From Escherichia coli (lineage in GTDB: Bacteria; Pseudomonadota; Gammaproteobacteria; Enterobacterales; Enterobacteriaceae), in NCBI RefSeq assembly GCF_003019035.1, contig NZ_CP027447.1: DNA of 64,000 nucleotides; one strand, given 5' to 3'. The position numbers and the translations under genes were made by a program. Below the pieces are notes generated by a model. That model was not told where the DNA came from. It searched no databases and saw only the letters and a program-made list of their open reading frames with translations. Below are positions 56,678 to 59,426 of this stretch, piece by piece. Within the stretch, counting starts at the first letter, position 1; each line of letters begins with the position of its first letter.

Positions 56678-57847
56678 TTAGCTGTTGGCAACGCAAACTG
56701 TTTCAGGTTGTTTTCTGGCTGACATAAACACCAGCAATAATGCCAGTCCCGCGACAATCGCCCCCATCACCGGCACAAAGCTGTATCCCAGCCCAGCAGA
56801 AATTACCGCACCACCAGCAGCTGCTCCCAGCGCATTTCCAAGATTAAAGGCACCAATATTGACTGATGAAGACAGACCTGGCGCTTCACTGGCGACACGC
56901 ATCACGCGCATCTGTAACGGCGGTACGACCGCAAAGGTTGCAGCGCCCCACACCACCATGCTAATAGCTGCGCCGAACTCATTGCGGGCCAGGAACGGGA
57001 TTGCCAGCATAATCACCATCAGCAGCAACAAAAAGCCTTTCAACGTGCCGTTAACTGAACGATCTGCCAGTTTGCCGCCGAGATAGTTACCGATAGAGAA
57101 TCCGACACCAATCAGCACCAGCATTGCTGTGACGAACACCGGTGTTGCGTGGGTAATACTTTGCAGTACCGGAGAGATATAGGTGTAGAGGGTAAACATT
57201 GCACCAGCTCCCAGTACCGTCGTCAGCAATGCAGACCGCACCTGCGGACGCATTAATACCGCCAGCTCTTTTTTCACTTCAGGTCGTGCCCCTGCACCAC
57301 CTTTAGGTAATGAGAAGAACAGACTTACCATTGAAATCACGCCCAGCCCCGCCGTTGCCAGAAATGACATCCGCCAGCCGATGGTTTCACCCAACCAGGT
57401 CGCCGCCGGCACGCCACCGATATTTGCCAGGGTTAACCCCATAAACATAGTGGCAACTGCGCTGGCCTGTTTATGTTTTGGCACCACGCTTGCGGCCACG
57501 ACTGAACCCAAACCAAAAAATGCTCCGTGATTCAGGCTGGTCAAAATGCGAGAAAGCATCAGGGTCATATAATCCGGCGCGATGGCGGAAAGTACGTTGC
57601 CGAGCGTGAAAATCGCCATCAGGAAAATCAACGCACTGCGGCGGGCACGATGAGAAAGTAGAAGCGTCATCAGCGGCGCGCCCACCATTACGCCAACTGC
57701 ATAGGCACTGATTAACATTCCGGCAGCGGGAATCGAGACATCTACACCGCGCGCAATGACGGGCAACAAGCCCATTGGCGAGAACTCCGTTGTCCCGATA
57801 CCAAACGCGCCAATCGCCAGCGCCAGCAACGGATAGTTAATTTTCAT
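56678..57847 (-). CDS. ydhP: MFS transporter YdhP
   Basis: 389 aa, 12-TM-like hydrophobic profile. Confidence 0.85.
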   Translation of the reverse strand: MKINYPLLALAIGAFGIGTTEFSPMGLLPVIARGVDVSIPAAGMLISAYAVGVMVGAPLMTLLLSHRARRSALIFLMAIFTLGNVLSAIAPDYMTLMLSRILTSLNHGAFFGLGSVVAASVVPKHKQASAVATMFMGLTLANIGGVPAATWLGETIGWRMSFLATAGLGVISMVSLFFSLPKGGAGARPEVKKELAVLMRPQVRSALLTTVLGAGAMFTLYTYISPVLQSITHATPVFVTAMLVLIGVGFSIGNYLGGKLADRSVNGTLKGFLLLLMVIMLAIPFLARNEFGAAISMVVWGAATFAVVPPLQMRVMRVASEAPGLSSSVNIGAFNLGNALGAAAGGAVISAGLGYSFVPVMGAIVAGLALLLVFMSARKQPETVCVANS

Positions 57848-58012
57848 GCCTTATCTCCACCTCTTCGCGTCATTACGCGATATTCATTAAAGTGGCGAAA
57901 GCATGACAGCAATCACAAAAAAATGAAAATAACAAAAAGAGAAAACACTTTTGCCATTTTGCTAACAAACAGGAAGGAGATGCGAGGGAGAGCGCGCTCC
58001 CTCGAGAGGAAA

Positions 58013-58102
58013 TCAGTGCAGCGCGGCAGTCAAACCCACGGCCACGATCAAACCGAGGACGATAATCGTTGTTACCAGTGAAAATTTAAGGTCGGTGCTC
58101 AT
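58013..58102 (-). CDS. ynhF: Small membrane protein YnhF (29 aa)
   Basis: Not in the ORF track; reverse-complement translation gives MSTDLKFSLVTTIIVLGLIVAVGLTAALH. Confidence 0.6.
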   Translation of the reverse strand: MSTDLKFSLVTTIIVLGLIVAVGLTAALH

Positions 58103-58400
58103 CAAGTTTTCTCCTTTTTTATTACCACACAAAAAGTGATATTACGCATTTTTACACACTGTGATGAAAAAATCTCCCGTCATTTATAATGATAAGTGTT
58201 TTTACCACTTCCCCTTTTCGTCAAGATCGGCCAAAATTCCACGCTTACACTATTTGCGTACTGGCCATTGACCCCTTCCTGACGCTCCGTGTCGTTTTTC
58301 CGGCGTACCGCAACACTTTTGTTGTGCGTAAGGTGTGTAAAGGCAAACGTTTACCTTGCGATTTTGCAGGAGCTGAAGTTAGGGTCTGGAGTGAAATGGA

Positions 58401-59426
58401 ATGGCAACAATAAAAGATGTAGCGAAACGAGCAAACGTTTCCACTACAACTGTGTCACACGTGATCAACAAAACACGTTTCGTCGCTGAAGAAACGCGCA
58501 ACGCCGTGTGGGCAGCGATTAAAGAATTACACTACTCCCCTAGCGCGGTGGCGCGTAGCCTGAAGGTTAACCACACTAAGTCTATCGGTTTGCTGGCGAC
58601 CAGCAGCGAAGCGGCCTATTTTGCCGAGATCATTGAAGCGGTTGAAAAAAATTGCTTCCAGAAAGGTTACACCCTGATTCTGGGTAATGCGTGGAACAAT
58701 CTTGAGAAACAGCGGGCTTATCTGTCGATGATGGCGCAAAAACGCGTCGATGGTCTGCTGGTGATGTGTTCTGAGTACCCAGAGCCGTTGCTGGCGATGC
58801 TGGAAGAGTATCGCCATATCCCAATGGTGGTAATGGACTGGGGTGAAGCAAAAGCTGACTTCACCGATGCGGTCATTGATAACGCGTTCGAAGGCGGCTA
58901 CATGGCCGGGCGTTATCTGATTGAACGCGGTCACCGCGAAATCGGCGTTATCCCCGGCCCGCTGGAACGTAACACTGGCGCAGGCCGCCTTGCCGGTTTT
59001 ATGAAGGCGATGGAAGAAGCGATGATCAAGGTGCCGGAAAGCTGGATTGTACAGGGTGACTTTGAACCTGAATCCGGTTATCGCGCCATGCAGCAAATAC
59101 TGTCGCAGCCGCATCGCCCTACTGCCGTCTTCTGTGGTGGCGATATCATGGCAATGGGCGCACTTTGTGCTGCTGATGAAATGGGTCTGCGCGTGCCGCA
59201 GGATGTTTCGCTGATCGGTTATGATAACGTGCGCAACGCCCGCTATTTTACGCCGGCGCTGACCACGATCCATCAGCCAAAAGATTCGCTGGGTGAAACA
59301 GCGTTCAACATGCTGTTGGATCGTATCGTCAACAAACGTGAAGAACCGCAGTCCATTGAAGTGCATCCGCGCTTGATTGAACGCCGCTCCGTGGCTGACG
59401 GCCCGTTCCGCGACTATCGTCGTTAA
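58401..59426 (+). CDS. purR: Purine repressor (LacI family)
   Basis: 341 aa [33 protein letters not shown]... Confidence 0.95.

Follow-up and report, generated by a model that had tools for sequence, protein, structure and literature searches.

The 29-codon gene between purR and ydhP of Escherichia coli is the known cytochrome bd-I subunit gene cydH, and the STnc550 RNA family that covers it is probably mis-typed

The minus strand of the 64-kb stretch of Escherichia coli DNA analyzed here (the window) carries the coding sequence of cydH (also ynhF or cydY) at positions 58013-58102. Translation of this segment gave MSTDLKFSLVTTIIVLGLIVAVGLTAALH, encoded by 29 codons, followed by a stop, with the ATG start at 58102-58100 and the TGA stop at 58015-58013; the assignment is supported by the translation, chain H of PDB entry 6RKO, the NCBIfam family NF033411, RefSeq, and conservation across species. 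Direct reading of the sequence places a Shine-Dalgarno motif, AGGAG, on the same strand at 58111-58115, 8 nt 5′ of the ATG, and its invariance across species is uninformative because the search pattern used to collect orthologs demanded GGAG. The gene is flanked by an ORF for a 389-residue MFS transporter at 56678-57847 (minus strand) and by an ORF for the 341-residue LacI-type repressor PurR at 58401-59426 (plus strand). These neighbors are named ydhP and purR in the annotation of E. coli SCU-301, and a 551-nt query showed 100% identity to that strain and 99.6% identity to K-12. With purR divergent and ydhP on the same strand, cydH forms a small unit of its own. The cydABX operon is absent from the 64-kb window, and ynhF has been described as an orphan gene between purR and ydhP that lies outside the cyd operon (PMC6853902). 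The original prediction had placed a 29-codon minus-strand peptide between ydhP and purR; the peptide was reproduced exactly on re-translation, and the ORFs of the window, the SCU-301 annotation, and PMC6853902 concur on its location.

The encoded peptide is identical in 29 of 29 residues to chain H of 6RKO (E. coli cytochrome bd-I), which the depositors labeled [quoted passage not shown] and the same sequence is found in 12 chains of eight PDB entries (6RKO plus seven more). It scored 50.2 bits, against a cut-off of 30, with the NCBIfam equivalog NF033411 (small_mem_YnhF, "cytochrome bd-I oxidase subunit CydH"), and the alignment set residues 1-29 on profile positions 1-29 of 29. These two matches bear out the earlier recognition of the protein as YnhF. 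A profile search of Pfam returned no family matching the peptide. The RefSeq protein for the locus is WP_000102278.1, cydH, and every record among the matches listed carries the RefSeq/PGAP label "cydH: cytochrome bd-I accessory subunit CydH." The locus was present in 5425 of 5426 complete E. coli genomes, in 5421 of them at a coverage of at least 80%. A total of 5430 places was found, and the one counted plasmid copy is presumably NZ_CP090612.1, a 420-kb record that could represent either part of a chromosome or a very large replicon. The window gene agrees with the known CydH/YnhF/CydY (UniProt A5A618) in all 29 residues, in length, start, and strand, and in the flanking genes ydhP and purR, without any difference at the level of the protein. 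The older name YnhF has given way to cydH (also cydY), and the gene is not new, having been annotated already and its product characterized structurally. The peptide begins with the polar residues MSTDLK (1-6), continues with 22 uncharged and mostly hydrophobic residues (7-28), and ends in His, and residues 7-28 are predicted to form one transmembrane helix. The earlier description of the product as the small membrane protein YnhF stands in its identity and single helix; its name is outdated, and the cydH product is now a defined subunit of cytochrome bd-I.

By the ORF finder, 81 ORFs of at least 20 residues overlap the 4.5 kb around cydH, and the length of a short ORF does not by itself exceed chance expectation. 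The cydH ORF stands above chance because it is identical to a solved chain, matches a curated family, and shows coding-type conservation across species. The ORF finder extended the frame to a TTG at 58132, giving 39 residues, and the gene is therefore hidden by the default 60-residue cut-off, in agreement with the earlier statement that it was missing from the ORF track. Only ORF length cut-offs cause cydH to be missed. The accompanying remark that short genes can be overlooked is valid but well known, and RefSeq/PGAP does annotate cydH.

Orthologs were collected by scanning a single genome of each species for a DNA pattern that spans the ribosome-binding site (RBS) and the first codons; the pattern biases the set toward species that share the cydH RBS and could not recover Klebsiella or more distant genera. 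The pattern matched 77 loci, 69 of which contain an ORF of exactly 29 codons starting with MST[D/E]LK; the other eight were rejected as chance matches. The sources of the 69 orthologs are, or look like, Enterobacteriaceae, with Escherichia, Salmonella, Citrobacter, Enterobacter, Kluyvera, Kosakonia, Leclercia, and Lelliottia represented among others. A metagenome-assembled genome (MAG) labeled "Proteobacteria bacterium" looks like Kosakonia. A contig titled Chryseobacterium sp. 18061 has an enterobacterial purR-cydH-ydhP locus, with 93% (PurR) and 87% (YdhP) identity to the window proteins, and its label probably results from assembly contamination or mislabeling. Because the pattern fixes the RBS and codons 1-4, the conservation statistics were restricted to codons 5-29. 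Across the 69 species, the mean column entropies of these codons were 0.47, 0.28, and 1.35 bits at codon positions 1, 2, and 3, respectively, and the variable columns comprised 25 of 25 third positions versus nine second positions. Nei-Gojobori estimates for the same codons were 0.150 for dN and 1.364 for dS, yielding a dN/dS of ∼0.11, and the residues Ser8, Thr11, Thr12, Leu16, Ile19, Val20, Ala26, and Leu28 were invariant. This pattern of variation is typical of purifying selection acting on a protein.

Gene order was examined in the same loci. The divergent purR lies upstream of cydH in 59 of 59 loci with enough flanking sequence, and 62 of 64 loci have ydhP 3′ of cydH in the same orientation; these counts are not independent because the sequences are related. 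In two cases, Salmonella enterica subsp. arizonae and a Pluralibacter MAG, no ydhP was detected 3′ of cydH. Locus L065 is an exception to the synteny with a longer gap of 318 nt, and ∼3.2 kb is inserted between cydH and ydhP in locus L076. In E. coli YZLc1-3, and also in EC17CM6, an IS1 element with a 9-bp target duplication is inserted at window positions 58123-58131, 21 to 29 nt 5′ of the ATG, where it comes between the conserved spacer and the RBS and ORF; cydH of these strains is still annotated as intact. In the human isolate E. coli G749, ydhP adjoins ribE, and cydH, purR, punR, punC, and the genes up to ribE are absent. This isolate is therefore a natural cydH-null strain, and the subunit is accessory and not essential for viability.

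Two other readings of the coding frame were weighed against these data. The start of CydH could lie upstream of the ATG, either at the TTG at 58132 to which the ORF finder takes the frame (39 residues) or at the TTG at 58105 that adjoins the ATG (30 residues), and the latter is favored by the presence of TTG-ATG in all species with GGAG located 5 nt from TTG 58105. Against these starts, 45 of 70 sequences have an in-frame stop four to six codons 5′ of the ATG, and the upstream frame changes between species through a 1-nt indel in an A-run; the 39-residue form is not conserved because of these features, and the start at TTG 58132 was rejected. The deposited 6RKO chain and the NCBIfam model both consist of 29 residues beginning with MSTD, and the species observed by top-down MS has 29 residues with formyl-Met at 100% coverage (PMC12529367). 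An upstream start is thus highly improbable. The conserved element might instead be an antisense ORF of 52 codons at 57923-58081 (plus strand), which is indeed open in the window. That frame contains internal stops in 32 of the 70 sequences, its peptide is different in every distinct sequence, and the coordinates make the variable third positions of the sense frame the first positions of the antisense frame. The antisense ORF is refuted by its internal stops and peptide divergence, and we give it virtually no chance of being the conserved element. The 29-codon sense frame beginning at ATG 58102 is the reading that we retain.

The spacer between purR and cydH (58103-58400) is 298 nt long in the window and 292 to 303 nt long in nearly all loci. 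It is as conserved as the cydH ORF, with 98 of its 298 positions invariant across 65 sequences, and its most conserved blocks are at 58256-58306 (ACGCCGG...GGTACGC), 58232-58247 (TAAGCGTGGAATTTTG), 58208-58218 (AAAAGGGGAAG), and 58147-58158 (TGTGTAAAAATG, the TGTGnAAAAATG block). A covarying hairpin at 58308-58328, CGCACAAC-AAAA-GTGTTGCGG in minus-strand letters, varies between genera, the stem being CGCAAC/GTTGCG in some and CACAAT/ATTGTG or GCAAT/ATTGC in others. Of 54 distinct sequences, 41 gave the more stable hairpin on the purR strand and 11 on the cydH strand (Wilcoxon p = 3e-6, uncorrected for shared ancestry), and the hairpin probably belongs to the 5′ leader of purR. A structured leader on the cydH strand was rejected because the only covarying hairpin favors the purR strand. 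Two autoregulatory PurR operators, to which GalR also binds in ChIP-chip (PMC5110547), are located upstream of purR at 58341-58355 (AGGCAAACGTTTACC, nearly invariant across species) and inside the purR coding sequence at 58430-58444 (GTGGAAACGTTTGCT).

On the cydH strand, TGTAAAAAT at 58148-58156 is a candidate extended −10 element put forward from its conservation, and TGTGnAAAAATG is among the most conserved blocks of the proximal spacer. This element would place the cydH transcription start at ∼58140-58143 and would give a leader of ∼40 nt. Scans for consensus promoters and terminators returned nothing on the cydH strand near the gene. The 5′ leader of the ynhF mRNA is trimmed by RNase G (PMC4191395), which would also fit a longer leader. 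A ChIP-seq/ChIP-chip peak for FNR labeled "ynhF/purR" was detected with each of the four methods used in PMC3688515; its motif score was weak, and the study saw no change in expression that depended on FNR. On the basis of a coordinate offset verified against the start of cfa, the center of this peak converts to window positions ∼58075-58108, on the RBS and start codon of cydH. The best FNR-like sequence, TTGATGAGCACCGA at 58092-58105, agrees at 8 of 10 positions; one such match versus 0.38 expected does not clearly exceed chance, and the coding sequence and the search pattern both confound its conservation. The ArcA ChIP supplements do not mention ynhF. A G+C-rich stem-loop, CGAGGGAG-(6 nt)-CTCCCTCG, was obtained in the centroid fold at 57983-58004 (minus strand), starting 9 nt past the stop codon. 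The z-score of the folded 66-nt stretch relative to shuffled sequences was only −0.9, which is not significant, and the support for the hairpin comes from its recurrence in other species. A hairpin of this kind with variable loops folds at the corresponding position in almost all of the 68 distinct orthologous sequences, and some changes in the stem keep the pairing (e.g., GGGGGAGAG/CTCTCCCCC and GAAGGAGAG/CTCTCCTTC). A clear U-tract is absent downstream of the hairpin, and the terminator scan made no call there. The 57983-58004 hairpin is probably the 3′ end, or a stabilizing hairpin, of a monocistronic cydH transcript.

The Rfam family RF02081 (STnc550, "enterobacterial sRNA") matches 58010-58400 on the minus strand with 396.1 bits against a gathering score of 48. 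The match runs end to end (model positions 1-388 of 388) and covers the whole purR-cydH spacer plus the cydH ORF, and the last 90 model positions (299-388), the 3′ quarter, are the translated ORF and are unpaired in the family consensus. The locus might accordingly be a noncoding Hfq-type sRNA in which the 29-codon ORF is incidental, a reading favored by the 396 bits over the full model and by the name STnc550, which reportedly originates from Salmonella RNA sequencing of Hfq-bound transcripts. A literature search on that name found no paper. When 67 orthologous sequences were analyzed with RNAalifold, 0 of 24 pairs exhibited a compensatory change, and the covariation term contributed −0.45 kcal/mol to a consensus of −13.3 kcal/mol. 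Also against an sRNA are the unpaired state of the ORF in the consensus, the many noncanonical pair marks in the alignment of the window, and the better folding of the sole covarying hairpin on the purR strand. The ORF itself has a coding signature, with third-position variation, a dN/dS of 0.11, and a fixed length of 29 codons, and the cydH product has been observed by MS and cryo-EM. The noncoding reading was rejected on the lack of compensatory pairs in the 67-sequence alignment and on the coding signature of the ORF, and there is very little chance that it is correct.

The cydH mRNA could alternatively have a dual function, coding for the protein and acting as a base-pairing regulatory RNA, and its cataloguing as an sRNA would thereby be explained. 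Such a function is in line with the existence of an Rfam sRNA family for the locus, with an upstream spacer that equals the ORF in conservation (98 of 298 positions invariant), and with the processing of the ynhF mRNA 5′ leader by RNase G (PMC4191395). It lacks a covariation-supported structure, however, the literature search for STnc550 found no target or Hfq data, and control at the DNA level of divergent promoters, the purR leader, and operators explains the spacer conservation more simply. We consider a dual function quite improbable. Given the PurR/GalR operators and the purR-strand hairpin, the conservation of the spacer is better explained by DNA-level control of the two divergent genes together with the purR leader. 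It is conceivable, although improbable, that the spacer is a shared divergent control region tying cydH to oxygen and purine, with FNR and PurR/GalR acting on both genes and STnc550 being a mis-typed composite. We read the RF02081 region as the cydH mRNA, its promoter region, and the antisense of the purR leader, and not as a structured noncoding RNA. STnc550 is the same DNA as window positions 58400-58010 on the cydH strand, and the family is typed as noncoding whereas its 3′ quarter is translated here. Because covariation support is lacking and the 3′ quarter is a translated gene, the family is probably mis-typed as an sRNA, and annotation of enterobacterial genomes should probably treat STnc550 as an mRNA/leader region rather than as an sRNA.

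The protein itself has been detected repeatedly. YnhF was identified by nano-LC-MS/MS in purified bd-I, is reported to be made at low oxygen, and retains formyl-Met (PMC6853902). Intact CydH with a formylated Met was observed at 100% coverage by top-down proteomics (PMC12529367), and a plasmid-encoded oxidase co-purifies with chromosomal CydH (PMC8324918). The original prediction named the lack of a translation signal as its refutation, and this is countered by the formyl-Met protein seen by top-down MS (PMC12529367) and in the purified oxidase (PMC6853902). The existence of the protein and its place in the complex have been demonstrated in the literature, where CydH production and CydAB binding are known from E. 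coli laboratory strains; the present analysis, in which the window strain was read as sequence alone, establishes the ORF, its identity, its coding conservation, and its synteny.

On the basis of these combined data, the feature is almost certainly cydH, encoding the formyl-Met, single-helix fourth subunit of cytochrome bd-I that shields heme b595 and is proposed to close a ligand entry. Initiation at ATG 58102 would produce a 29-residue protein that retains its N-formyl-methionine and would enter the inner membrane as a single transmembrane helix. In the solved complex, the helix docks in a cleft of CydA opposite CydX and forms the fourth subunit (CydA-CydB-CydX-CydH). That cleft has been described as TM1/TM9 (PMC8951039) and as helices 1 and 8 (2025 preprint, bioRxiv 10.1101/2025.06.23.660515). 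The bound helix covers heme b595 from the lipid phase and is proposed to shut the wide oxygen/ligand entry, which stands open in the enzymes of Geobacillus and mycobacteria; with that entry closed, O2 would take a narrow hydrophobic channel beginning in CydB to get to heme d. A lipid stabilizes the helix, the position and role of which are described in PMC6853902, PMC8951039, PMC12648545, and PMC8585947, and a further source addresses its position and proposed role (bioRxiv 10.1101/2025.10.10.681541). The authors of the cryo-EM work deduced the channel-blocking role of CydH from the structures, its effect on ligand selectivity would be a consequence of that role, and the cytochrome bd literature searched yielded neither a phenotype of a cydH knockout nor kinetics to compare. 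Both E. coli bd-II and mycobacterial bd function without a CydH-like subunit (PMC8951039, PMC8585947, PMC8324918), and cydH is reported to co-occur with cydAB of the long-Q-loop type (L-subfamily) (PMC8951039). A dual membrane orientation has been reported for tagged CydH (cited in PMC13232886), and a bacterial two-hybrid signal between YnhF and RNase E was ascribed by its authors to the hydrophobic helix itself (PMC13232886).

Descriptions of the gene go back to 2008, MS and several cryo-EM structures have revealed its product, and it is part of current RefSeq annotation. Its significance here is that of a positive control, in that a reader of raw sequence recovered a genuine 29-codon gene hidden by a 60-residue ORF track. 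The mildly new points are limited to the probable mis-typing of STnc550 and to the strongly conserved, fixed-length purR-cydH control region, next to which an FNR ChIP peak falls on the start of cydH. Among known systems, CydX (37 residues) of E. coli bd-I and its paralog AppX of bd-II resemble CydH in being small single-helix proteins on CydA or AppC that were long missed by annotation (PMC8951039, PMC12648545), and no sequence match between them and CydH was obtained in the PDB-chain and NCBIfam searches. In contrast to CydX and AppX, CydH is encoded elsewhere, binds by heme b595, and has a proposed role in controlling access, not in assembly. The bd-II oxidase contains AppX but has no CydH-like subunit (PMC8951039, PMC12648545, PMC8585947). 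CydS of the Geobacillus thermodenitrificans cytochrome bd is, like CydH, a single-helix accessory subunit (PMC8951039), but it is the structural equivalent of CydX and not of CydH (PMC6853902, PMC8951039). The Geobacillus enzyme is without CydH and has hemes b595 and d swapped, and the site that CydH covers in the E. coli oxidase is the proposed O2 entry in the Geobacillus enzyme (PMC6853902, PMC8951039).
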